Shown here: positions 1 to 57,380 of the stretch, piece by piece
How the letters are laid out: every line of letters begins with the position of its first letter
Numbering within the stretch: the first letter of the stretch is position 1
Notes under the pieces: model-generated
Told to the model about the DNA's origin: nothing
Seen by the model: the letters and a program-made list of their open reading frames with translations, nothing else
Database searches by the model: none
Assembly: GCA_001794635.1 (NCBI GenBank)
Contig: MGKE01000007.1
Coordinates: 8,774 to 72,773, forward strand
Length of the DNA stretch: 64,000 bases
Direction of reading: 5' to 3'
DNA from: Candidatus Yanofskybacteria bacterium RIFCSPLOWO2_01_FULL_39_28
Lineage (GTDB): Bacteria; Patescibacteriota; Minisyncoccia; 2-02-FULL-40-12; GWA2-44-9
Made by a program: the position numbers and the translations under genes

Positions 1-1
1 A

Positions 2-829
2 GCAAGCGGAATCGTGCTTTTGAAGGCATATGCTGACTACTACCATGGTTATAAAGATGGCGATAAGGAAGTTCGAGGATATGAAAGCCTAGTAAAAGAA
101 CTGTTAGAAAAATTCCCCGCAAGTGAAAGAATTATAGGAGAACAAAATCAAAAAGATTTTATAAAATTATATGGAGCAATTTTACGTGTGCGAAATATCC
201 TTATAACTTTTGATGAATTTGCTGGTAACGAAATCCTAACCGAACGAGATGTGCAGGATTATCACAGCATGTACATTGATATCTATAATGAATTCCGTAA
301 AGGCATAGAAGAAAAAAAAGAAAACATCAACGACGATGTAGTGTTTGAAATGGAACTTATCAAACAGATAGAGATAAATATTGACTATGTGCTCGGTCTT
401 ATCAAGAGATACCACGAAGACCATATTAAGAATCGGGAACTGTTACTTGATATTAACAAAGCGATAGATTCCAGCGTCGAGTTACGCAACAAAAAGGATC
501 TTATTAACCAATTCATTACATCTCTCGATGTTAAAGCAGCAGTTGATGAAGACTGGCAGAAATTTGTTGAAGAAAAGAAAATCGAAGAATTAGAGAAGAT
601 TATTACCGCCGAAAACCTTGATCATGATGCTACTTATGCATTTATTAAAAACGCATTTAGGGATGGGGCGGTTGCAATAACCGGCACAGCAATTTCAAGG
701 GTGTTGCCACCAGTATCTCGGTTTTCTCCAACTGGTGAACGGACCCAAAAACGAGAAGGTGTCCTGAATAAACTCACAAGTTTTTTTGAGAGATTCTTTG
801 ATATTTCTGGGGGTAAGTTTTTAGAATAA
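2..829 (+). CDS. hsdR: Type I restriction enzyme R subunit (HsdR), C-terminal fragment; 5' end lies outside the window
   Basis: The frame is open to the window edge. The helical C-terminal region (AILRVRNILITFDEF, DLINQFITSL, AFIKNAFRDG) matches my recollection of the conserved HsdR C-terminal domain. No helicase motifs fall inside the window. Confidence 0.55.
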   Translation, partial: ASGIVLLKAYADYYHGYKDGDKEVRGYESLVKELLEKFPASERIIGEQNQKDFIKLYGAILRVRNILITFDEFAGNEILTERDVQDYHSMYIDIYNEFRKGIEEKKENINDDVVFEMELIKQIEINIDYVLGLIKRYHEDHIKNRELLLDINKAIDSSVELRNKKDLINQFITSLDVKAAVDEDWQKFVEEKKIEELEKIITAENLDHDATYAFIKNAFRDGAVAITGTAISRVLPPVSRFSPTGERTQKREGVLNKLTSFFERFFDISGGKFLE

Positions 830-836
830 AATAACT

Positions 837-2396
837 ATGAAATCAATAATACTCGCAAGAGTTTCGACACAAGAGCAAATGGATGGGCAATCAATACCTG
901 CCCAGCTTGAGCGGTCCAGAGAATACCGGAAGCGTAAGGGGCTAGAACCGTGGAAAGAGTTTCAGTTTGATGAATCATCTATTAAGGACCATAGGAAAAA
1001 ATTTGAAGAAATTATCGATCTTATTAAAAGCTCAAGAGAGCGTGTTGCTTTTATCGTGGAAACAATTGATCGAATGCAACGCAGTTTCAAGGAATCGGTC
1101 TTATTGCTTGATATAATTAAGGCCGACAAAGTCGAAGTTCACTTTATTCGAGAAAACTTAATTATTGATAAGGATTCAAATAGTTCAGAGCTTTTGCGAT
1201 GGGATATGGGCGTAATGTTTGCTCGGGGCTTTGTGCTACAAATTAGTGATAATGTAAAAAGAACATTTAGGCAAAAACTGGCTAATGGAGAAGCGATAGG
1301 ACAACCTAAACTAGGATATATTTCAGCTATCAAGGATGGCAAGAAGTTTCATATACCCGATCCGGAAAAAGCACACTTTATACCAGCTATTTTTGAGCTC
1401 TATCTGCAAGGATGGTCTTTCAGGGCTATTGCTGATGAAATGTATAAAAGAGGCCTAAGAAGCAGGAATAATAAAAAGGTTTCTCAAAGCAATATTCAAA
1501 AAGTTATCAAAGACCCATTTTATTGCGGTATTATAATATCAAAGGGCAAAGAGTACCCTCATCATTACGAAAAATTGATTTCATTTGAAAAATATAGCAA
1601 GGCACAGAATTTGATGACTCGTAAAAGCAACCTTTCAACAAAGACCCGCCACAAGGTATTCGCCTTAAGTCGGCTGGTCCATTGTAAAAATTGCCACGGC
1701 CTCATATCGGCAGAACCAAAAAGGGGGCACCTCGTGTATTATAGCTGTTCTAACTATAAGAATATGTGCAAACGTCTTTATATTCGCGAGGAAGTTATGC
1801 TCAAGCCGGTCCTAAAAGCCCTGAAATCAATCCAGTTGCCACAGGAAAGAATGGATATGCTAGTAAACAGCTTAAAGCGCACCCATGAGGCAAAAAGGGC
1901 CTATCAGGAAGAAGCCACAAGCGAATTACGACAACGATACGATAAAATTCAAGCAATGAATGACCGGTTAATAGACATGCTTGCAGATGGGCGTATTACT
2001 GACGATGTATATGACAAGAAATTAAAACAATATAAAGAAGATCAAAGATCAATTGAGCTTCAATTACAAGAATATACAGATGCCGATGAGCAGTATCATA
2101 TCACGGCAAAAACAATACTATCACTAGCACAAAGGGCTTTAGAAATATTCAACCGTTCTGAAGTAACCGAAAAACAGCAATTTTTAGGGTATTTTCTTCA
2201 GAACGCTCAACTGAATGGAAGTAACCTAGAGTTTACCTTGAGAAACCCATTTAATTTGCTTGCAGAATATGCAAGCCGTCCTAACTGGCTCCCAGAACAT
2301 GACATTATTATAACCATTTTATCAGACCAAGAATACATGACCAATCTTTGGAATAAGCTCTGCTATATTAAGGAGGTGGCGAGAGTTGGAGACTAA
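837..2396 (+). CDS. Large serine recombinase (resolvase catalytic domain + recombinase domain + zinc ribbon + coiled coil)
   Basis: N-terminus IILARVSTQEQ (catalytic Ser motif), Cys cluster CKNCHG..YYSCSNYKNMC, long helical C-terminus. Starts 8 nt after the hsdR stop. Confidence 0.85.
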   Translation: MKSIILARVSTQEQMDGQSIPAQLERSREYRKRKGLEPWKEFQFDESSIKDHRKKFEEIIDLIKSSRERVAFIVETIDRMQRSFKESVLLLDIIKADKVEVHFIRENLIIDKDSNSSELLRWDMGVMFARGFVLQISDNVKRTFRQKLANGEAIGQPKLGYISAIKDGKKFHIPDPEKAHFIPAIFELYLQGWSFRAIADEMYKRGLRSRNNKKVSQSNIQKVIKDPFYCGIIISKGKEYPHHYEKLISFEKYSKAQNLMTRKSNLSTKTRHKVFALSRLVHCKNCHGLISAEPKRGHLVYYSCSNYKNMCKRLYIREEVMLKPVLKALKSIQLPQERMDMLVNSLKRTHEAKRAYQEEATSELRQRYDKIQAMNDRLIDMLADGRITDDVYDKKLKQYKEDQRSIELQLQEYTDADEQYHITAKTILSLAQRALEIFNRSEVTEKQQFLGYFLQNAQLNGSNLEFTLRNPFNLLAEYASRPNWLPEHDIIITILSDQEYMTNLWNKLCYIKEVARVGD

Positions 2397-2854
2397 TCTT
2401 GGTATTCAGCATAAGCATCGTGAGCCAATTTGTCGGCCCTTTTACCTAACACCGAATCTCTGGAATGATGAATATATGTTACGCCATCTTTGAATCTTTG
2501 CTCATATTTTTTTGCTTCATCAAATAGTGGTTTTATGTGGTCCTTTTTTATTCTATACTCCCCGTTCATCCACCTAACTACTAACTGGCTATCCATTCTT
2601 ACCTCAACATTGTATCTAGCAACGGCAACTGCTTTATCAAGAGCAAAAACCAATGCCCTAAATTCTGCTTCAGGAACAGTCATTTCTCCTAGATACTTTT
2701 TAAAATGACACTCTTCTCCTTTATAGTCTATTATTAAAACCCCACAAGCAGATTTGCCTTTGGATAACCTGTTTTTTAGATGTGCGTCTTTAATCCTACA
2801 ACAAGCATCAACTATAATCTTAGTCTTATTCATAATGACAAGATTATAGAACAA
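2393..2854 (-). CDS. RNase H type 1-like protein
   Basis: Acidic catalytic residues appear in the expected order: IIVDAC, EAEFRAL, MDSQLVV, ADKLAHDA. The true start is probably Met8 (2833), since a TATAAT lies just upstream. Convergent with the recombinase, with a 4-nt overlap at its stop. Confidence 0.75.
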   Translation of the reverse strand: MFYNLVIMNKTKIIVDACCRIKDAHLKNRLSKGKSACGVLIIDYKGEECHFKKYLGEMTVPEAEFRALVFALDKAVAVARYNVEVRMDSQLVVRWMNGEYRIKKDHIKPLFDEAKKYEQRFKDGVTYIHHSRDSVLGKRADKLAHDAYAEYQD

Positions 2855-2912
2855 TGTAGCTTTTTATCAAGACTTTTTTTATTATATTAATAGCCTATAG
2901 TATATATCATCT

Positions 2913-4619
2913 ATGAATAAGTATTCGAAAGTAACAACTTCAGGCTCAAACAACTTTGATGTTATAGTAATTAATACTATTTTTACTGTTTCCTACTTCT
3001 CATCAAAAGATGGCATAAAGACTTCCTCTAAAGACAAAGCGGATTACTTATCAAGCGTAGAGGAAGAAATAAAAAAATGCTCTGCTAAATTAAAAGATGG
3101 TGGTTTTATGTTTATATATGGCTTACCTGCCTGGCTACCCGAATATTTTAATCTCATAAGAAAAGACTTTACATTTAGATACTGGATTGCGATTGATGGT
3201 GGCCATAAAGATACATCAATAAAAAACAATATCCCCAAGAGTCACGTAGGCCTACTAATGCTATCAAAAGGAAATAAATATGGCCCATTAAATACCAAGC
3301 AGGAAAAGATTAGCTATTCGGCTTGCTTGCATTGTAGAAATAATCTTAAAGATTGGGGTGGAAAGAAACACTTGATGAACAAAAATGGAACAGCAATATC
3401 AGATGTATGGAAAGATTTTTATCATAAGAATGGCCATATTGTTGATTCTATCGGGATTAATCTCGAGTTGGTAGATTTTGATAAAACATCGATAAAAATT
3501 GACGGCAAGATAATCCCTCCTCAGATATTAGATAGGATATATAACTTAACCAATAGGATTGGCTATAGATTTGGACTCCACAATATAATCGTCCCACCTC
3601 CAAAGAGTGTTTTTAAAACACCGCCAAGTGTTGACACAAAAACCAGAGCTGCAGATTTAGACAAAGTAGTTATGGCGAATTGTATAGAAGAAATGAAAAG
3701 GCTATATAAAAGATATCCAAATGGTTGTTTTGATATTTTCTTTGCAGACCCTCCCTATAATTTAGATAAGAAATACGACAAGTATAAGGATACGAACAAT
3801 GAGACTGAATATATAAACTGGTCAAATGAATGGCTAGATTTAGGGATTAAACTCTTAAAACCGGGCGGGTCATTATTTTCCCTTAATATCCCGGAGTGGT
3901 CTCTTCATCAAGCAATTTATCTAAATGATATCGCATATTTTCAAAATTGGATTGTCTGGGATTCTATGTCAGTTCCTTTGGGCAAGATAATGCCTGCCCA
4001 TTATTCTTTATTGCACTATTCTCAAACTCCGAATGTTAAATTCTGCGGCCATAAATGGATTGATAATCCTGGTTATTGCCTAAGAGCTTCATGTATTAAA
4101 GCAAGGACGGTTTTGGGTGATGATAAGAAAGTAGTACTTGCTGATATATGGTCTGACGTTCACAGAATAAAACATAAGAAAAATAGAGATTACCATCCAT
4201 GTCAATTGCCTCATAAATTAATGGAGAGGATTATTAGCCTATTTTCAAAAGAGGGAGATTTAATATTCGACCCATTCGCCGGAGCAGGAACAACTGCTAT
4301 CGTAGCAAAGAAGCTAAATCGCCATTATTATACAACCGAAATTTCTGCGGACTATATAAATATAACAAACCGTAGATTGAAAGAAGTAGGTGAATATGGA
4401 GATATAGTTCTGCGCTCAGTTAAACACGACAACAATGGACTAACAAAAAAGAGCGTAGAATTAGTCGTACAAAAATTAGCATTAGAGCTAAGTAGGAAAC
4501 CCACCCTAGAAGAGTTGTTAAATAAAGGTAAGTTCAAGAGGACCGATTTAACAAAACTGTATGGAGATGAAAATAGGGCCTTAAAAGTAGCTAGAGTTGC
4601 TCTTACAAATAGTAATTAA
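2913..4619 (+). CDS. DNA methyltransferase, beta-class N6A/N4C family, with a degenerate N-terminal copy of its own core
   Basis: FFADPPYNL (motif IV) precedes FDPFAGAGTT (motif I). Residues ~60-190 echo ~300-420 (GGFMFIYGLPAW/GGSLFSLNIPEW, FRYWIAID/FQNWIVWD, SHVGLLML/AHYSLLHY, SDVWKDF/ADIWSDV) but lack both DPPY and FxGxG. Confidence 0.85.
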   Translation: MNKYSKVTTSGSNNFDVIVINTIFTVSYFSSKDGIKTSSKDKADYLSSVEEEIKKCSAKLKDGGFMFIYGLPAWLPEYFNLIRKDFTFRYWIAIDGGHKDTSIKNNIPKSHVGLLMLSKGNKYGPLNTKQEKISYSACLHCRNNLKDWGGKKHLMNKNGTAISDVWKDFYHKNGHIVDSIGINLELVDFDKTSIKIDGKIIPPQILDRIYNLTNRIGYRFGLHNIIVPPPKSVFKTPPSVDTKTRAADLDKVVMANCIEEMKRLYKRYPNGCFDIFFADPPYNLDKKYDKYKDTNNETEYINWSNEWLDLGIKLLKPGGSLFSLNIPEWSLHQAIYLNDIAYFQNWIVWDSMSVPLGKIMPAHYSLLHYSQTPNVKFCGHKWIDNPGYCLRASCIKARTVLGDDKKVVLADIWSDVHRIKHKKNRDYHPCQLPHKLMERIISLFSKEGDLIFDPFAGAGTTAIVAKKLNRHYYTTEISADYINITNRRLKEVGEYGDIVLRSVKHDNNGLTKKSVELVVQKLALELSRKPTLEELLNKGKFKRTDLTKLYGDENRALKVARVALTNSN

Positions 4620-5589
4620 ATATCTCCTTAAGTAGCTCTAGGTTTTTGTAATTGACGGCATAATCACAAGAGTTCACAAACCTGCCAACATCATTTTTGC
4701 CCCTAGCCATCCAGCCCGCTCCATCAATAAAATTAATAAATAGCACATCTTTTTTATTGGCCGCATTGTATCTCTTTATCGCAGAGAATAACGCATCGTT
4801 GGCGTCTCCTTTTTTAGTTTGACCAGAGGCAGTGGTTTTTGTATAGCTGCTTTCAATCAATATTTTCGGGTCTTTTTTATTAGGAATTATTAAATCTATC
4901 TTCGGGTTTCTTTCAGCTCCTGTGGTTGTTCTCTGGTAGTAACTTTCTAAAAGTTCTAGAGAACCCACTTCATATTTACCGTCTGGCACAAGTTTGCCTA
5001 TAATCTCTCTTTCTACAAATGTTCCTACCTTTTGACTAAATCTGCCTGAATATTTATCTTCCAACATAAGCCTCAATTTTGAAGTGTCTTTTTTAAGCGA
5101 GGATAAATTATTTATTACAAAACGTCTAAGGATTATCGGCTCATCAGCAAGTATTTCCATTAATAGTTTATCTTTGTGACCGCTTGTAAATATCCGAGAG
5201 AAAACTTTTATTAATTCCGGGTCTTCATTTATGCTTTCGAGATCGGCAACAGAAAGACCATATTTTTCATTAATAGCCGGAAGAATATAATTTTTTATCT
5301 TTTCATTTGATATGCCCGTGACCGCAAGGATTATAGCCCATCCAATATTTTCTTCTTTTGCTCCTTCGTTCATCATCAGGTCATATTCAGGCCGTCTCTT
5401 TATCGTTAAATCTATTACCTTTTTGAAATTATTTTCTGGGTTATCATCAAACTCTAATTTAGAAAAATCCTCTATAATGCTTTTAATAAAATTATCAAAT
5501 TGAGACGCCAAATCGGGCATTGGTATTGCCGGAGAAAGGGATTGATAGAATTCACCTAGAGATAGTCTCTGTGGTTTATTGTCGGTCAT
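4603..5589 (-). CDS. Putative type II restriction endonuclease (DpnII/MboI-like C-terminal core)
   Basis: Convergent with the methyltransferase and overlapping it by 17 nt. KIDLIIP..ILIESSYTKTTASGQ..FINFIDGAGW resembles, from memory, DpnII RFDFVI..LYLIEVNFYSGSGS..MWITDGQGW. Confidence 0.45.
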   Translation of the reverse strand: MTDNKPQRLSLGEFYQSLSPAIPMPDLASQFDNFIKSIIEDFSKLEFDDNPENNFKKVIDLTIKRRPEYDLMMNEGAKEENIGWAIILAVTGISNEKIKNYILPAINEKYGLSVADLESINEDPELIKVFSRIFTSGHKDKLLMEILADEPIILRRFVINNLSSLKKDTSKLRLMLEDKYSGRFSQKVGTFVEREIIGKLVPDGKYEVGSLELLESYYQRTTTGAERNPKIDLIIPNKKDPKILIESSYTKTTASGQTKKGDANDALFSAIKRYNAANKKDVLFINFIDGAGWMARGKNDVGRFVNSCDYAVNYKNLELLKEIFNYYL

Positions 5590-5624
5590 TTTAACCGAAC
5601 TTTAGCAGAATTAGCCGTGATTTG

Positions 5625-5652
5625 CAAAACAAAAAAGCAGGTTGTGCCTGCT
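5625..5652 (-). terminator. Intrinsic terminator after the 543-aa gene
   Basis: Stem AGCAGG/CCTGCT with a 5-nt loop, followed on the minus strand by TTTTTTGTTTTG. Confidence 0.65.
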
Positions 5653-5733
5653 CTTTGTTTTCAGAGATATTTTGTTATTAACTAATCAAAATATTCTTCC
5701 TGGTTTTATTTTAGGAAAGTCATGCGTAAGTTT

Positions 5734-7365
5734 TTAATTACTCTTTATTATTTCAATTTTTTTAACCCAAGTTTCAACATATCCTCCGTCATTATAGATA
5801 AATTCGTCTCCGTCTTTTTCTTCACACATAACATTATCAACCGTAGCCGTTACTTCAAATATAGTATTTCTATCTCTATCGTTGTCGCCTATATTCCCGA
5901 ATACATCAAAAATATATTTAACCCAGCTAGAGTCCCATTCCTCACCCCATTTTCGCAAACCTTCCTCATCATTAGAAAAATCTTCTTTTGAGCGAGGGTC
6001 ATCGGCGCTAGCCAGGAATGTTCCCCAGAAATGACCGTGTTTCTCGTGCGATCCAACAGGATGTTCCTTATCAATCACCCAAAACCTGATACCGCTCGTG
6101 TGAGCGTTGGGAGAAACCACCGCATTCCATGTTATCTCTTTGTCTCTGTATAAACTCCCGATATTACACCAAGTGAAAACAACATCGTTAAAAGTAGGAT
6201 TTACCTTGATTACGCCGAGAAGATTTAAAAGATGTTGAACTTCGGACAGATTATTAAACCACTCCAAGTCCTGTTTTACTTTTTCGTCTATATTTTCGTT
6301 GAATTCTAAAATCAAAATCTCGGCAAGCGCTTGTTTCTTGCCAACGTCAGATCCAGCGGCAACTTTGGCAAGTGGCTGATAAAACTCCTTTAAAAAATCG
6401 GCGTACATACAAAAAAGCCAGGAATTGTGGTTGCACTCATTTCTTTCTTGTGTAAATAACGGAGCGTTAATGCCATTGATATTCGACAACCTGAAATCGG
6501 AATTTCCCGAGATGTACGTAAAATTACTCGCCGCAGAGTCCCATTGGTAACGCATGGATACCTTGTCTGATATAAGTTCTTCGTCCCCAAATTCGTATAA
6601 ACGTCTGAAGTCAAAATCTATATAAGAATTTCCGTCAATGTTCTTAAAAGATTTTTCAACCGAGAAACTGCTTCCTAACCACCCAGAGTCATTAAAGATT
6701 CCCCAGCCAGAGCCAAAACCGCCGATTGAAGGATATTCAAGGACTTTTTTTAATTCTAGTCTGTCTTTTTCTATCCAATACCAAGTGTCTACGTATTCAC
6801 TCATATCAGAACCACTATTGCCGAGTTTTGTTGAAACAAACCACTGATTATTCAATTTATCTGAAACAATTTCATAACTTGGACCGTGTCTTTTACCGTT
6901 GCTAACAATGAGGTCAGCCAAGAATTCATCATTATAAAAAAAGTAGTAATTTGACGTACTCATTACGCCCATTATGGCGGCAAGGTTTACGTCGTTTACT
7001 TTCTTATATTCTATTATCGCATCAAATTCAGAATTAGGATTTCTTATGTCATTCCAAACATAGACGACATTTATATAATCTCCTATCTTTTCGGCGCTTT
7101 TACAGATAACAAATGCCTCAAGCGGTTCTTTCGGCCAGTTATCTAACGCTTCATTGGGATATTTGTATTCATTACAAAACTTCTTTCCCGCTTCACGATG
7201 CTGGGCGTACTCTTTATCCCAATCAACTTTCTCCGACTCATTGTCATCCAGCGACCACTCCTCATTTAATGGAGCGCTGTTTGTTCTAAATAAAAACAGG
7301 TTAATTAAAACCAAAAGCCCCATTACTAATACCACAATCCAATTTTGTTTTAGAAAATTTAACAT
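5734..7365 (-). CDS. Hypothetical membrane-anchored protein (543 aa)
   Basis: Long ORF with an N-terminal hydrophobic helix (WIVVLVMGLLVLINLFLF) and a Trp/Asp/Asn-rich remainder. I recognise no family. Confidence 0.8.
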   Translation of the reverse strand: MLNFLKQNWIVVLVMGLLVLINLFLFRTNSAPLNEEWSLDDNESEKVDWDKEYAQHREAGKKFCNEYKYPNEALDNWPKEPLEAFVICKSAEKIGDYINVVYVWNDIRNPNSEFDAIIEYKKVNDVNLAAIMGVMSTSNYYFFYNDEFLADLIVSNGKRHGPSYEIVSDKLNNQWFVSTKLGNSGSDMSEYVDTWYWIEKDRLELKKVLEYPSIGGFGSGWGIFNDSGWLGSSFSVEKSFKNIDGNSYIDFDFRRLYEFGDEELISDKVSMRYQWDSAASNFTYISGNSDFRLSNINGINAPLFTQERNECNHNSWLFCMYADFLKEFYQPLAKVAAGSDVGKKQALAEILILEFNENIDEKVKQDLEWFNNLSEVQHLLNLLGVIKVNPTFNDVVFTWCNIGSLYRDKEITWNAVVSPNAHTSGIRFWVIDKEHPVGSHEKHGHFWGTFLASADDPRSKEDFSNDEEGLRKWGEEWDSSWVKYIFDVFGNIGDNDRDRNTIFEVTATVDNVMCEEKDGDEFIYNDGGYVETWVKKIEIIKSN

Positions 7366-7405
7366 TTAACAATCAGGTTCAATCATAATATAACGATAGA
7401 CCGTT

Positions 7406-7516
7406 TTATTGCCAAAAAAATATTTTTAGCTCATAGGCAACTCCAACTACTAGAACTAAAATGGCCCCCAACATAAAACCTATTATTAAAAGTGCTTTTC
7501 TCGTTTCATCGTCCAT
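7406..7516 (-). CDS. Possible 36-aa single-pass membrane peptide
   Basis: ATG..TAA ORF below the track threshold: MDDETRKALLIIGFMLGAILVLVVGVAYELKIFFWQ. It sits between two co-oriented genes. Confidence 0.25.
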   Translation of the reverse strand: MDDETRKALLIIGFMLGAILVLVVGVAYELKIFFWQ

Positions 7517-7522
7517 ATTTTT

Positions 7523-7984
7523 TTACTTTTTCTTTGCTGTTTCAAATATGTTGTCAATTCGCCCAACAACCGCCTCACTACAGTGTATGTCGCTATCTTT
7601 GGATTCATAGGCCGTTATACCTCTTAAACGAAGAGCATGTTGAGCTTTATCAATCCATTCTTCCAAAGGTTGACTTAATGAGCAACCACCAGAGCCACAA
7701 TAACTTGCCAGAAGATATCCTATATTTGTACATATTTGCTCGTCATTTAGTTCTTCGGGTTCGCTGGAGAGAATTTTTCTATCCTCCATCTCAAAGAGTC
7801 GTGCCCGTTTTTCGCCCATGTCATCAAAGATAATGTCACCAGATACATACTCAGCATTACTAACAGGAGCAGAAGGTGTTTTGGAATTATCAACAAAAAG
7901 AAAAATATTCACCCCTATTAAGATAAAGATAAAAACAAAAACCGTTTTATTTACGTGTTTTAACTTATTGAAAATTAGTTTCAT
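7523..7984 (-). CDS. Hypothetical membrane-anchored/secreted protein (153 aa)
   Basis: N-terminal hydrophobic segment VFVFIFILIGVNIFLF. Overlaps the TerS-like gene by 20 nt, suggesting translational coupling. Confidence 0.7.
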   Translation of the reverse strand: MKLIFNKLKHVNKTVFVFIFILIGVNIFLFVDNSKTPSAPVSNAEYVSGDIIFDDMGEKRARLFEMEDRKILSSEPEELNDEQICTNIGYLLASYCGSGGCSLSQPLEEWIDKAQHALRLRGITAYESKDSDIHCSEAVVGRIDNIFETAKKK

Positions 7985-8390
7985 TTGATTTTTCTAATTT
8001 TTTCTCGTTTTCAACTCGGTCATATAGTTCCCCCAAGTCAAAAGGTTTTCCTGTTATGCTAACATCGGACTCATTCTTGTCTTTCCAGCTATAATTATTT
8101 TTAAGATTAAATATTGCACCAGCCACATGCTTACCTGAAAACAAGAATTCTTCTGCATATCTTTCACAAAGTGCTTTGGCTCTTTTTATGGTGCCAAAAA
8201 ATTCTTCGTCTTTTGAGTAGTTTAAAAGTGTCTGTCTGTTTACGCCAAGGCCTACTGCCAAACCACTCATGGTTAATGGTTTACCACTTTTTTCGCATCC
8301 ATCAAAATATTCCGAGATTGCCCTTTCTAACGCCTCGCTAGTTTTAAACTTTAATGGTCTGCCGACTTTGTTGTTTGGCACATTGTCCAT
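7965..8390 (-). CDS. Phage terminase small subunit-like (TerS) DNA-binding protein
   Basis: GRPLKFKT..LTMSGLAVGLGVNRQTLLNY..FFGTIKRAKALCERYAEE..GAIFNLKNNYSWKDK is the typical N-terminal HTH plus FxLKNxxxWKDK pattern of small terminase proteins. No TerL gene is adjacent. Confidence 0.7.
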   Translation of the reverse strand: MDNVPNNKVGRPLKFKTSEALERAISEYFDGCEKSGKPLTMSGLAVGLGVNRQTLLNYSKDEEFFGTIKRAKALCERYAEEFLFSGKHVAGAIFNLKNNYSWKDKNESDVSITGKPFDLGELYDRVENEKKLEKSNETNFQ

Positions 8391-8545
8391 AAGTTAATTA
8401 TAAGTGCCATTCAAAAGATTAAAACCAATGGCAAGACATAACCTTTAAATGTCTAACAACAAAGTTCCATCACTGTTTTTAAAATACCTGTTTTTGCCGT
8501 CTAACCTAGGCGAGCTTAAGAGGTAGTCCCCGAAGTGGTAACAAA

Positions 8546-9118
8546 TTACCTTTTGGACGTATTCTTATAAATTTCAACCACTTCTGATAATCCACTTTCG
8601 CCCTCGGTCCAATCCATAGCCCAGAGGGACCTATCAAATTCTCTCAACGAGGAGCAGTACTTCTTCCAAACACCTTTGCAGATATCTACATAATTGAAAT
8701 AATCTTCTGGTTTAAAATTTTCAGCTTTTGAAGGTAATTTTCTTTCCGCACATTTTTGCTTCTCTAGTTCCATTAAAGAATTTAAGGCCCTATAATCTAA
8801 AACCGTAAATTCTTCTGGATAGCAGACAGTTAAAATAGCCGAAGCAATGGCAATACCTACTCCTTTTATACCCAATAATTTCTTCAGTTTTTCCATTCTG
8901 TCTGTAGCCAGCCACAATTCCTTACTAAGTTCTTCTATGGATTGACCGTTCCATTTTGAAGCAATTTTTATACCAGAGGGCTTTCTTTTCCAAAAGACAA
9001 TGGCAAAAAACTCATTCCCTGTTAGACAGTGGTTTCTTTGAAAATTATTATAAACTTCTTTAAATAAATAACTTTCTAATTCGGAGGGGTAATATTTTAG
9101 ATAGTCCCGCAGTTCCAT
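8546..9118 (-). CDS. Hypothetical protein with a helix-hairpin-helix-like segment
   Basis: LLGIKGVGIAIASAILTVCYPEEFTVLDYR resembles an HhH/glycosylase-like motif. I place the start at MELRDYL (9118); the upstream 47 codons of the track ORF run through a GC-rich structured intergenic region. Confidence 0.6.
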   Translation of the reverse strand: MELRDYLKYYPSELESYLFKEVYNNFQRNHCLTGNEFFAIVFWKRKPSGIKIASKWNGQSIEELSKELWLATDRMEKLKKLLGIKGVGIAIASAILTVCYPEEFTVLDYRALNSLMELEKQKCAERKLPSKAENFKPEDYFNYVDICKGVWKKYCSSLREFDRSLWAMDWTEGESGLSEVVEIYKNTSKR

Positions 9119-9323
9119 AAAGCAATGCAGGGAATGTGTAAAAACACAAAGCCCGCTACTAGGAAGAGGTCTTACGACCATCTCTGCCAAAGTTTCCCCT
9201 GGCAACGCGATGAACGCCCTAATAACGGGGTCTCTATGTTCATCGCGATTACTGACCATGCCCTGCAGAATCTGCCGAGTTTAGGCCTTTATTTATTATT
9301 AAATTGTGGTTTAATTCTACTAC

Positions 9324-10145
9324 ATGAAAAACAAATATTCAATACAATCAACTTCAAGCGTAGATTTGAAAAAAGAGCTGGAAGATTTAGATACAGAAAC
9401 GCTAGAAAAACTCAGTGCAATTTTAAAAACCAAGGACTCTCTTTTAAAGACAAAAGGGCATAAAAAGTTAATCAATTACTTTCGGGAAACATCCGACAAG
9501 GAAGTTATACAAACTAAAATAAAAAGTTTTAGAAAAAAGTATGGAATACCACTAAACGGTTTTATTCTAAACCCCGATGACTACAAAGAAATACCAGAGA
9601 GTTGGTGGCACAAAACAGGGAAATTTATAAAATCATATGAACTTAATAAGGATGTATGCGACATACTTAAAATATATCGCTTGAGTAAGGATTGGGTCTT
9701 ATTTTTAACAGCATATCTCTTTTATAATAAATTAGTTATTGATGGAGCCGAGAATAGGTACAACTTACTCCAAGCAGTTGATATCAGTTCAAATAAAAAT
9801 AAAATCGCTGGTATAGACCCAGCCTTTTATCCCGTAGCTGTCTGTATCAGTACTTATGCGTCAAAAAGGGACATATTGGATTTTATAGGAAGGACTTACA
9901 ATCCCTTGATTTCGTCATTGCAAACAGAATACAAAAGTAAGGAAGTAAAAATTGGCAAATTCAGAACCAAAAAACCTGAAATTCAAGCAAGAAATAAATT
10001 TATTTATAACCATCGCCACTTGCCGTTTAAAGAAATAGTGAGCATGGTGAGCAGTGAGTTTCCTGGCAAGATAACAAACACTATTGACGAAGGTAGTGTG
10101 GGTAAAATAATTTCTCTGGAGAAGAAAAGACGAAAAGAAGTGTAG
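9324..10145 (+). CDS. Hypothetical protein (273 aa), first gene of the rightward module
   Basis: Long Lys-rich ORF, followed by a hairpin ACCCTGA/TCAGGT plus a T-run near 10184-10207. No recognisable motif. Confidence 0.7.
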   Translation: MKNKYSIQSTSSVDLKKELEDLDTETLEKLSAILKTKDSLLKTKGHKKLINYFRETSDKEVIQTKIKSFRKKYGIPLNGFILNPDDYKEIPESWWHKTGKFIKSYELNKDVCDILKIYRLSKDWVLFLTAYLFYNKLVIDGAENRYNLLQAVDISSNKNKIAGIDPAFYPVAVCISTYASKRDILDFIGRTYNPLISSLQTEYKSKEVKIGKFRTKKPEIQARNKFIYNHRHLPFKEIVSMVSSEFPGKITNTIDEGSVGKIISLEKKRRKEV

Positions 10146-10208
10146 TACAGAAAATTCTTATATTTTAACTTCCATTAAGGATACCCTGATTAAAAGTCAG
10201 GTATTTTT

Positions 10209-10346
10209 ATGTCCGAAAACAAAGAACAACAAAAAGAGATAGACCAAGTCGCAGAAAAATTGGCTGAGTTGTTTTTACATCAGATTTATCAGGACCTAAA
10301 TTTTCCAAAGAATAAAGACGTTAAAAACGAGCAATATGAACGATAA
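10209..10346 (+). CDS. Possible 45-aa protein
   Basis: ATG ORF (MSENKEQQKEIDQVAEKLAELFLHQIYQ...) whose stop overlaps the next start by 11 nt, which is typical mobile-element gene packing. Confidence 0.3.
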   Translation: MSENKEQQKEIDQVAEKLAELFLHQIYQDLNFPKNKDVKNEQYER

Positions 10347-10683
10347 AGAATCAAAATTATATAGATATTCAAGGGTTTATTGGGATGTGAGTGCAAGATT
10401 TAAGTTAAAACCTATTGAAATCCTGCTTATGTCTTATATTCATAGCCTTTCAACAAGAGGCAGGTGTTGGGCTTCCCAAAAGGGAATGGCAAAAATTATG
10501 GGGACGACTGAAACCACAGTTAACCAAAAGATTAAAAAATTAGTTGAAATGGATTTAATAGAAAAAGTTTCCTGTAATGAAGACCAAAAAAAGATGGAAT
10601 ATAAAACAACTGAAATCTGGCGAGAACTGGTTTGGGAGATAGAGCAATTTCTTAGTGAAAGACATAAAGAAAAAGCCCGATAG
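10336..10683 (+). CDS. Winged-helix DNA-binding protein
   Basis: CWASQKGMAKIMGTTETTVNQKIKKLVEMDLIEK is an HTH plus wing pattern. Confidence 0.65.
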   Translation: MNDKESKLYRYSRVYWDVSARFKLKPIEILLMSYIHSLSTRGRCWASQKGMAKIMGTTETTVNQKIKKLVEMDLIEKVSCNEDQKKMEYKTTEIWRELVWEIEQFLSERHKEKAR

Positions 10684-10937
10684 GGTTAAAAGAGAAGAGC
10701 CCTCGTCATTAAAAAACTTAATACAATAATAAATAATAAATTAATAATTAAATAATATTAAAAATAAAATCAGCTTTTAAAAGCTGATGATAGAGGTTTT
10801 ATTCTTTTAAACAGGAACATATAATACGCACGAACATGATTTTCCCTCATAGGTCACAATTAAAAGGCAGCCCGCAGATTTCTTATAAACGGAAGTCATG
10901 TTCGCGGGTTGCCTTTTGGTTGTAACCAAATCATTAT

Positions 10938-12518
10938 ATGAATAAAAAAAATGCAATTGGATATTGCCGTGTCAGCACCGATGAACAAGCCAAACACGGT
11001 CTTTCTTTAGATGTTCAGGAAGAATCCTGTAAAATGGCCATCCAAAGTGATGGATATGAACTACTAAAAATAATCAGGGACGAAGGTAAGAGTGGCGGAA
11101 ACCTTAATAGAGCTGGGATGAGGGAATTAATATCGCTGGTCATAAATAAAAAAATAGATGCCATTTATACTATAAGCGGTGACCGCCTAAACAGAAATAC
11201 CCTGGAATACATGCAGTTGAGAAAGTTGCTACGAGAAAATGATATTGATTTGAAATACATTAACCAAGCAAACACTGATGACTCGGCCATGGGAAGAACT
11301 ATGGACACGGTTCTAGCTTCCTTTAACGAATTCCAGAGATTGCAAACATCAGAAAAAGTTAAAAAGGTTTCAGCCGCTAGGGTTGAAGCTGGTTATTTCC
11401 CTACGGGAGCCCCTATCGGCTACAAAAACGATATTAATCCAGACCCAAATGCCGACAGACTGGCGAAAAAGGTTATAGTTCCCGATGCAATGGCTCCACT
11501 GGTAACAGAGGCCTTTAAATTCTTTGCTACGGGCAATTTTAATGGTTACGACCTTTGTAATTTACTAAACCAGAAAGGATTAAGGACAAGGTACGGTAAG
11601 CCGATGCTACCAAGCCGATTCTATGAACTATTAAAAAATAGAATATATCTTGGAGAGGTTCATCATGGCAAAAATCATAACCCTAACGGAAAGCACAAGC
11701 CCCTTATAGATAAGGCGACATTTGACAGGGTCCAGTCCATTCTAGACGGCCACAATAAGCATGCCTGCAGACGTAGGAAGTATTGTTGGCTCTTGGGCGG
11801 CTTTGTATACTGTGCCAGGCATGGAAAGCGATATACAGCCGAGTGGCATCTAAACAAAAAGTTGGCTTATTACCACTGCACCAACAGGAATGGGTGCGGA
11901 AAATACATTGAGACCAACAAATTGGAGGCCTTAATAGCCGATAAGTTTAAAGACTTAGAATTTAACCCTGAGTTTATTGATAAGATAATAGAAAAGGCAA
12001 AAACGGCTTTTTATGCAAGCAGAGATGAGTATGATGCCAAAAGACAGGCCTTGGTAAACCAGAAAACGGCTTTTGAGGCGAAATTAAAATCAGCTGAAGA
12101 TAAGTTGTTCTCGGAAATATTGTTAAGTGATGACTATAAGAGGATAAGATATGAAGTTAAAACAGAAATTGAAAGCATAGAAGAACAATTAGCGCATCTA
12201 TCTCAAAGGCAAGAGGTCAAAGTGGACATAGCAAAAGAAATTCTGTCATTTACGAAAAATATTTACCTGACTTACAAAAAAGCTCCGCCTCATATTAAAA
12301 GGCATTACTTGAGTCTGTTTTGGGACAGATTTGAGATCCAAGATGGAGTTATAATAAAATCCGTTTCCTCTATACTGTTCAACCATCTTTTAGATCTGGA
12401 ACAGATCTACCTTAAAAATCAAAACCCCCAGATTACTGGGGATTCTGACGTTCTTATAAATATAGCAACAGAGCTCCGCGGCCAGGACTCGAACCTGGAA
12501 CCATCTCCTTACACATGA
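10938..12518 (+). CDS. Large serine recombinase (integrase); its 3' end is read from the tRNA-Asn 3' exon
   Basis: AIGYCRVSTDEQ catalytic motif, recombinase domain, Cys cluster YCARHGKRY..YHCTNRNGC, coiled coil. The last ~45 nt (ELRGQDSNLEPSPYT) are the complement of the tRNA T arm and acceptor, and the stop lies 7 nt inside the intron. Confidence 0.85.
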   Translation: MNKKNAIGYCRVSTDEQAKHGLSLDVQEESCKMAIQSDGYELLKIIRDEGKSGGNLNRAGMRELISLVINKKIDAIYTISGDRLNRNTLEYMQLRKLLRENDIDLKYINQANTDDSAMGRTMDTVLASFNEFQRLQTSEKVKKVSAARVEAGYFPTGAPIGYKNDINPDPNADRLAKKVIVPDAMAPLVTEAFKFFATGNFNGYDLCNLLNQKGLRTRYGKPMLPSRFYELLKNRIYLGEVHHGKNHNPNGKHKPLIDKATFDRVQSILDGHNKHACRRRKYCWLLGGFVYCARHGKRYTAEWHLNKKLAYYHCTNRNGCGKYIETNKLEALIADKFKDLEFNPEFIDKIIEKAKTAFYASRDEYDAKRQALVNQKTAFEAKLKSAEDKLFSEILLSDDYKRIRYEVKTEIESIEEQLAHLSQRQEVKVDIAKEILSFTKNIYLTYKKAPPHIKRHYLSLFWDRFEIQDGVIIKSVSSILFNHLLDLEQIYLKNQNPQITGDSDVLINIATELRGQDSNLEPSPYT

Positions 12519-12724
12519 TCCATAACTTTCGTAATGGGGTGGACTATCTTATGTCCCCAAAGGGACCCGGGTATATAGTCTCTACACATTTATCACTTGC
12601 GTGAATTTAGCTCGGGATTGCCAGTTTAAAGGTTTCCCCGAATTAGCCCGGTTTTTCATCGCGCATTTCTGCGCGAAGCTGCCTTACTCGACAGGGAGCC
12701 GCTCTACCATTGAGCTACCGCGGA
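12474..12724 (-). tRNA. tRNA-Asn(GUU) split by a group I intron (exons 12691-12724 and 12474-12511); CCA not encoded
   Basis: The joined exons give a 72-nt cloverleaf: acceptor UCCGCGG/CCGCGGA, D arm GCUC-AAUGGUA-GAGC, anticodon loop CUGUUAA, variable UGGUU, T arm CCAGG-UUCGAGU-CCUGG, discriminator G. Close to bacterial tRNA-Asn sequences as I recall them. Confidence 0.85.
12512..12690 (-). ncRNA. Group I intron, IC3-like, 179 nt, no internal ORF
   Basis: P1 CUGU|C:GGCAG with U.G at the splice site; P2 UCGCGCA-GAAA-UGCGCGA; AAUUCGGGGAAACC..GGCAAUCCCGAGCUAAAUUC; P6 UCAC-GCAA-GUGA; GUGUAGAGACUAU; P3 CCGGG/CCCGG; P8 GUCCC-UUUG-GGGAC; P7' AUAGUC; P9 CCAUUAC-GAAA-GUUAUGG; terminal G. Confidence 0.85.
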
Positions 12725-12916
12725 ATGTTTTCGTCTAGCCATTTTCTACCCTGACCAGACTTCAAAAAATGTTCTCTTCTGATTGCTTCTGTTCTTGTAC
12801 CGCATTCTTCGTAGTAAAGCAGTACAAATGGACTATTTGCTCGTGTCCACTTATTGCTTCCGACACTATGTTCACGAAGTCTACTTATTAGAACATCAAT
12901 CTACCAATCAGAATAT

Positions 12917-12945
12917 ATTTTACCAAAAAACAAGAAATCAATCAA
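12917..12945 (-). promoter_or_regulatory. Candidate sigma-70 promoter facing the tRNA-Asn gene
   Basis: Minus strand reads TTGATT, a 17-nt spacer, then TGgTAAAAT (extended -10). It lies ~185 nt upstream of the tRNA 5' end. Confidence 0.3.
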
Positions 12946-31698: not shown

Positions 31699-31786
31699 TG
31701 GCGGAGGCGGAGCGATTCGAACGCTCGATACCTTGCGGTATACTCGCTTTCCAAGCGAGCGCACTAGACCACTATGCGACGCCTCC
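31699..31786 (-). tRNA. tRNA-Ser(GGA), CCA encoded
   Basis: Acceptor GGAGGCG/CGCCUCC, anticodon arm CUCGC-UUGGAAA-GCGAG, long variable arm UAUACCGCAAGGUAUC, T arm GAGCG-UUCGAAU-CGCUC, then GCCA. Confidence 0.9.
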
Positions 31787-57293: not shown

Positions 57294-57380
57294 GCCCCCG
57301 TGGTGGAACTGGCAGACATGCATGCTTCAGGAGCATGTGGCCGCAAGGCCGTACAGGTTCAAATCCTGTCGGGGGCACCA
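57294..57380 (+). tRNA. tRNA-Leu(CAG), CCA encoded
   Basis: Acceptor GCCCCCG/CGGGGGC, anticodon arm CAUGC-UUCAGGA-GCAUG, long variable arm UGGCCGCAAGGCCGU, T arm ACAGG-UUCAAAU-CCUGU, then ACCA. Confidence 0.92.

Follow-up and report, generated by a model that had tools for sequence, protein, structure and literature searches.

Group I introns that interrupt transfer RNA (tRNA) genes within the anticodon, between positions 35 and 36 (35/36), have already been described in the Patescibacteria. A preprint by Williams (2020; bioRxiv 10.1101/2020.01.27.920355) raised the known settings of tRNA introns from 4 to 21 and, as far as it is quoted by Nakagawa et al. (2026; mSystems, PMC13011429), covers 'Asn.4Ug' and an occasional Thr.2Ug miscall. 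In 95 complete Patescibacteria genomes, Nakagawa et al. reported group I introns that split 15 tRNA-Asn(GUU) and 3 tRNA-Asp(GUC) genes at 35/36, demonstrated self-splicing in vitro for one Asn and one Asp pre-tRNA with junctions sequenced at 35/36, and found that mutating the terminal G to C abolishes ligation in vitro (PMC13011429). The same work established that ARAGORN and tFind often report 35/36 genes as tRNA-Thr(UGU) with an intron at 33/34, which is a tool artefact, that 333 tRNA introns range in length from 184 to 894 nucleotides (nt), and that the published classifier assigns none of the Patescibacteria tRNA introns to subgroup IC (PMC13011429). Here we analyze a compact member of this family in Candidatus Yanofskybacteria bacterium RIFCSPLOWO2_01_FULL_39_28, located in a 64,000-nt stretch of contig MGKE01000007.1 (positions 8,774 to 72,773 of the forward strand; the window, to which all coordinates refer unless another contig is named).

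Our analysis indicates, with a probability that we put at about 0.9, that the locus is a tRNA-Asn(GUU) gene split at 35/36 by a 179-nt group I intron that lacks an open reading frame (ORF) and is predicted to be self-splicing. An earlier sequence-only reading of the window had proposed a compact group I intron without an ORF, inserted at 35/36, whose 5' splice site carries a U.G wobble and whose last nucleotide is G; this proposal is upheld by the Rfam match, by covariation across 26 introns and by the identity of the tRNA. Its further suggestion that no group I intron had been described in a tRNA-Asn, or between positions 35 and 36, is contradicted by published work (Williams 2020; PMC13011429). 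Both the intron type and the insertion site are already known, and the locus is a clean example rather than a discovery.

Architecture of the split tRNA-Asn gene

The split tRNA-Asn(GUU) gene occupies positions 12724-12474 of the minus strand, with a sequence that agrees base for base with the one given in the sequence-only reading, whose coordinates, exon/intron cuts and lengths (34, 179 and 38 nt) are exact. The 34-nt 5' exon (12691..12724, minus strand; tRNA positions 1-35) ends in C32 U33 G34 U35, and the 38-nt 3' exon (12474..12511, minus strand; positions 36-73) runs from U36 to the discriminator G73, with no encoded CCA. Joining the exons yields a tRNA of 72 nt whose anticodon loop is CUGUUAA; ARAGORN identifies it as tRNA-Asn(gtt), as had been anticipated, with a single G.A mismatch at 27:43. 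The acceptor ends of the gene read UCCGCGG...CCGCGGA-G, comprising a U1-A72 pair and discriminator G73. These two features are characteristic of bacterial tRNA-Asn, so their presence in the gene fits a tRNA-Asn identity; U1, the discriminator G and a 5' exon ending in CUGU were also found in 50 of the 50 tRNA-Asn 35/36 genes that we parsed in related genomes.

No intron-less tRNA-Asn(GUU) was found in the 64-kb window or in the flanks of related loci, and ARAGORN and Rfam detected no other tRNA-Asn or tRNA-Thr in the window. Two ordinary intron-less tRNA genes are present there, a tRNA-Ser(GGA) at 31699-31786 (minus strand) and a tRNA-Leu(CAG) at 57294-57380 (plus strand). An exact-protein look-up recovered the locus in several aquifer metagenome contigs, and in three of these, which belong to the same population, the pre-tRNA is identical (100%).

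The intron itself spans 12512..12690 on the minus strand, and its assignment as a 179-nt group I intron without an endonuclease ORF draws on the Rfam match, the mapped helices, covariation and the ORF list. The Rfam family RF00028 (Intron_gpI) matches 12704-12520 on the minus strand over the full model (1-253) with 60.5 bits, against a gathering score of 50, and an E-value of 7e-13; this is the sole group I match in the window. The intron contains no endonuclease ORF, the longest same-strand ORF being 25 amino acids (aa) long.

Helices were mapped by hand, in agreement with both the Rfam alignment and the thermodynamic fold, and all those enumerated in the sequence-only reading (P1, P2, P3, P6a, P8, P7' and P9, together with the terminal G) are present. 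In P1 (12679..12694, minus strand), exon nucleotides C32-U35 and intron C1 pair with the guide GGCAG (intron 8-12) across a GAGUAA loop, as CUGU|C:GGCAG, and the U35.G9 wobble pair marks the 5' splice site. P2 (12659..12676, minus strand; intron 15-21/26-32) has 7 base pairs (bp) and a GAAA tetraloop (UCGCGCA-GAAA-UGCGCGA). The 5' strand of P3, CCGGG (12647..12651, minus strand; intron 40-44), pairs with its 3' strand CCCGG (12567..12571, minus strand; intron 120-124), which forms the core pseudoknot together with P7. The P4-P5-P6 domain (12586..12641, minus strand; intron 50-105), supported by mapping, covariation and the fold, consists of P4 (UCGGGG/UCCCGA, intron 50-55/74-79), a J4/5 junction of AAA, a P5 of merely 2 bp (intron 59-60/69-70) around the 8-nt loop UUUAAACU, P6 (GC/GU, intron 80-81/104-105) and P6a (UCAC-GCAA-GUGA, intron 87-90/95-98), which is closed by a GCAA loop.

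The 5' strand of P7, GACUAU (12575..12580, minus strand; intron 111-116), lies inside GUGUAGAGACUAUAUACC and is separated from P3' by 3 nt, and its 3' strand AUAGUC maps to 12542..12547 (minus strand; intron 144-149). Between them, P8 (12553..12566, minus strand; intron 125-129/134-138) reads GUCCC-UUUG-GGGAC. P9 (12520..12537, minus strand; intron 154-160/165-171) has 7 bp, a GAAA cap and a single U.U mismatch. The terminal guanosine (omega G, intron 179; 12512..12512, minus strand) directly precedes U36 and is invariant in all 26 aligned introns.

By analogy, the intron most likely self-splices in the manner of its tested relatives. Once transcribed, it would fold into P1-P2, P4-P6 and a P3-P8/P7 pseudoknot with P9, while the guide GGCAG would pair with exon nucleotides C32-U35 and set U35 in the U.G wobble. 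An external guanosine would then attack after U35, the guanosine site of P7 would be taken over by G179, and the 3'-OH released on U35 would attack after G179. The exons would be ligated into the 72-nt tRNA, with CCA added later. Two relatives whose introns sit at this same position have been shown to carry out this chemistry in vitro (PMC13011429).

Covariation, relatives and the short P5

Related introns were located in species-representative genomes with a pattern scan for GTAGAGACTANATACC, a gap of 15-45 nt and ATAGTCC, and their exons and introns were delimited by anticodon-stem pairing and P1. The scan returned at least 118 loci, nearly all of them in metagenome-assembled genomes (MAGs) titled as Patescibacteria or Candidate Phyla Radiation (CPR). 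The parsed host tRNAs comprise at least 50 further tRNA-Asn genes split at 35/36, the insertion point that the sequence-only reading had put forward for a survey, together with at least 26 tRNA-Asp and at least 15 tRNA-Tyr genes at 35/36 and at least 8 tRNA-Leu genes at 34/35. Among the matches listed, the closest is a locus of Patescibacteria bin H41-bin108_1 (L042), which has identical exons and a 193-nt intron and is 89% identical over the pre-tRNA. A scan of viral contigs gave 2 matches, one of which (L002) is an intron of the Ile2/Met type that interrupts a tRNA whose anticodon is CAU. A single MAG (CAYSAY01) carries introns of one and the same sub-lineage in a tRNA-Asp and a tRNA-Asn (L037 and L117), with a mutual identity of 83%; the pair is consistent with spread between tRNAs that have C32-U35, read by the guide GGCAG.

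Covariation was assessed on an alignment of 26 introns from the sub-lineage to which the Yanofskybacteria intron belongs, made up of 20 Asn introns (including the one in the window), 4 Asp introns and 2 published Asp introns. Standard pairs fill 94.1% of the pair cells, as opposed to 32-47% after displacing the 3' partners by 1-3 columns. Changes on both sides were observed in 27 of 49 pairs (224 cells), and none of 500 shuffles reached any of the observed covariation measures. The covarying helices are P2, P3, P5, P6a, P8 and P9, with both-side changes in 7/7 pairs of P2, 3/5 of P3 (where 99% of cells are paired), 4/5 of P8 and 6/7 of P9. Each of the four exon pairs of P1 (U.G, G-C, U-A and C-G) is present in 26/26 relatives, and every family-invariant column is retained in the intron studied here.

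The short P5 has a direct counterpart in a sister strain. Contig L124 (5410-5680, aligned to window positions 12474-12724) is 99.5% identical and carries a 192-nt intron that equals the 179-nt intron plus a 13-nt P5 hairpin. The closing pair of P8 (G125-C138) has become A-U in L124 through a double change, and C40 has become U with P3 still paired. The two introns form a natural long/short allele pair.

The short form is, moreover, common. Scanning metagenomes for its P4-P5 module, TTCGGGGAAACCTTTAAANTGGNAATCCCGAGC (window 12622-12633; intron 58-69 region), recovered at least 119 contigs (L126-L244), in which the module resides in introns of tRNA-Leu(UAA) at 34/35 (at least 30), tRNA-Asn, tRNA-Asp and others. 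With that distribution, the 2-bp P5 is a widespread module rather than a lesion. Its recurring 8-nt loop reads UUUAAA(A/C)U. Asn introns of 179 or 180 nt occur in at least 8 metagenome contigs, 6 of which align to the Yanofskybacteria intron without indels and with 6-16 substitutions each; many of these substitutions are paired (e.g. 125G-138C to A-U and 40C-124G to U-A). Among the matches listed, the 179-nt intron ties for the shortest of about 190 parsed introns, followed by introns of 180, 181 and 184 nt.

These data bear on the possibility that the intron has decayed and lost the ability to splice, leaving a tRNA pseudogene at the locus while the cell relies on another tRNA-Asn. The intron is as short as any in its family, has a 2-bp P5 and a mismatch in P9, and is surrounded by mobile DNA and a pseudogene, all of which would fit such decay. 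Against this stand the retention of all family-invariant columns, the preservation of helices through paired changes in diverged 179/180-nt copies from other metagenomes, and the occurrence of the short P4-P5 module in several host tRNAs across the contigs enumerated above. Published tRNA-Asp introns of 184 nt and 196 nt also share the short P5, and the 196-nt intron splices in vitro. We consider decay very improbable as an explanation of the locus.

Some observations nevertheless weigh against a functional split tRNA-Asn. P5 is down to 2 bp and P9 bears its U.U mismatch, and inspection by eye allows at most 1 bp for a P10 with the 3' exon, which is essentially none; alignment of the exons would consequently have to depend on the anticodon stem. 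P7 and the ACC of P3' were preset by the search pattern, and their invariance in the alignment is no evidence. The case for this particular copy draws on its sequence, the covariance-model match, covariation and tRNA identity, from which we infer the splicing chemistry.

The host tRNA also has to be weighed against a second assignment, since standard annotation does not return tRNA-Asn. With default settings ARAGORN called no gene at this locus in the 64-kb window; when introns are allowed it reports tRNA-Thr(tgt) i(33,179), with an intron of equal length displaced by 2 nt. The shift arises because each junction reads U|...G, the intron following a U and ending in G under the Thr-type boundaries as well. 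That the gene encodes tRNA-Thr(UGU), its 179-nt intron sitting at 33/34, two bases further upstream, is barely credible given that U33 forms a Watson-Crick pair with A in 26/26 relatives, so that there is no wobble pair at the Thr-type splice site, and U35 wobbles with G in 26/26; that the acceptor U1-A72 pair and discriminator G are those of the parsed tRNA-Asn hosts; that the intron-less tRNA-Thr(UGU) genes of related loci (n=16, one displayed example of which starts with GCC) share at most 70% identity with the joined exons; and that the sequenced splice products of an equally ambiguous published gene locate the junction at 35/36, in work that describes the Thr call as an artefact (PMC13011429). 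For annotation, a tRNA-Asn missed by default and named tRNA-Thr in intron mode would bias the estimated completeness of the genome as well as its estimated codon table.

A nuclease gene remnant and mobile DNA beside the gene

At its 5' end, the tRNA-Asn gene overlaps a decayed GIY-YIG nuclease gene (12715-12945, minus strand; Pfam PF01541, E-value 1.2e-5) with an in-frame TAG at 12903-12901. The last codons of this remnant (IPR-stop) are encoded by nucleotides 1-10 of tRNA-Asn. Intact GIY-YIG homologues of 82-85 aa end likewise on tRNA-Asn in three related loci (L027, L078 and L192), and L078 has a duplication of roughly the first 11 nt of the tRNA. Homologues are also found directly before an intron-less tRNA-Thr (L012) and an intron-less tRNA-Val (L168), which ties the association to the 5' ends of tRNA genes rather than to the intron, and on these grounds we rejected the gene as a homing endonuclease of the intron.

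The 3' end of tRNA-Asn abuts at least 12.4 kb of mobile DNA (window 1-12518) that runs off the start of the window. Homology with the otherwise identical contig L123 ends one base past the discriminator, at window position 12473 (junction 12472/12473), and at the junction L123 has no island, displaying a terminator hairpin and unrelated genes instead. A large serine recombinase ORF (10938-12518, plus strand) reaches into the tRNA gene, its last 45 nt being antisense to the tRNA 3' exon and 7 intron nt. The island further contains a DnaD-like gene, restriction-modification genes, a second serine recombinase and a LOOT RNA (9166-9287, minus strand; Rfam RF03000, 65.2 bits against a gathering score of 46.4). 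The LOOT RNA overlaps the start of an ORF at 8546-9259 (minus strand), and a gp3-like DNA-packaging gene lies nearby at 7965-8390.

Homologous recombinases (25-58% identity) converge on intron-containing tRNA-Asn in at least five loci (L014, L073, L096, L105 and L178) and stop 52-63 nt inside these genes, a pattern suggestive of serine-recombinase elements that form a CPR family directed at tRNA-Asn. When the window was searched for a repeat of the tRNA 3' end that might mark the other boundary of the island, nothing above chance emerged, the island itself extending past the window start.

Comparison with described group I introns

The intron shares with the described tRNA-Asn 35/36 introns of Patescibacteria the host tRNA, the insertion point, the U35.G wobble, the terminal G, the phylum (judged by the titles of its nearest relatives) and the miscall as tRNA-Thr(UGU) at 33/34. 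Its exons are close to published ones, their first 25 nt, for instance, being identical to those of GCA_030583765.1. It differs from the published Saccharimonadia Asn introns (222-235 nt) in lacking the extra insert that these carry between P7 and P3'. That interval is where P7.1/P7.2 are located in subgroup IA of the Michel-Westhof scheme.

At 179 nt, the intron falls 5 nt below the published minimum of 184 nt among 333 introns. The sequence-only reading had described it as shorter than the Azoarcus intron, and this is true; within its own family the distinction is marginal, with published introns starting at 184 nt and relatives of 179, 180 and 181 nt. It is unlikely, in our estimate, that no shorter group I splicing ribozyme is on record from nature than the 179-nt form, with the 2-bp P5 and its 8-nt loop as a compact stand-in for the usual receptor of the P9 tetraloop; if this were so, it would offer a minimal natural scaffold with a ready comparison in the sister strain, whose P5 is longer by 13 nt. 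What value the locus retains comes from a putative ribozyme that is naturally minimal at 179 nt and has a sister allele of 192 nt to be paired with, a combination that may appeal to ribozyme engineers.

Likeness to the classical IC3 tRNA introns, which the sequence-only reading had emphasized, holds for the architecture. Cyanobacterial tRNA-Leu(UAA) introns at 34/35 and Azoarcus-type tRNA-Ile(CAU) introns have the same layout, with a P2 but without P5abc, and with both P2 and P9 capped by GNRA loops; their P4 and J6/7-P7 motifs also resemble those of the Yanofskybacteria intron. The stretches UUCGGGGAA...AUCCCGAGC and GUGUAGAGACU are common to it and to Acidobacteriota Ile2 introns that carry the label IC3. 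The classical IC3 introns differ from it in host tRNA and insertion site and in their length of 205-250 nt, and the CCUAAG...UAUGG motif present in the IC3 sequences compared is missing from its P5. Identity to the Nostoc and Acidobacteriota introns amounts to 70-73%, the background of a permissive alignment. The architecture can be described as IC3-like (P2 present, neither P5abc nor P7.1/P7.2, and a 3-nt gap between P7 and P3'), whereas the published classifier places the tRNA introns of this phylum outside IC (PMC13011429).

The closest published introns are not in tRNA-Asn genes but in Microgenomatia tRNA-Asp(GUC) genes, likewise at 35/36: GCA_001029755.1 (196 nt), which splices in vitro (PMC13011429), and GCA_030583725.1 (184 nt). 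They resemble the Yanofskybacteria intron in the guide GGCAG, the short form of P5 and the lack of an insert after P7, and they share with it the blocks GGCUAAUUCGGGGAAACCUUUAAA(A/C)UGG(U/C)AAUCCCGAGCUAAAU and AAAUGUGUAGAGACUAUAUACC...AGAUAGUCC. They are unlike it in the host tRNA and in P2, P6a, P8 and P9, which differ in sequence and length. The P4-P5 and P7 blocks match those of the GCA_001029755.1 Asp intron almost base for base, the stretch around the 5' strand of P7 being the same there, and identity to this intron reaches 80% of aligned positions, compared with 71-73% for the other group I introns examined.

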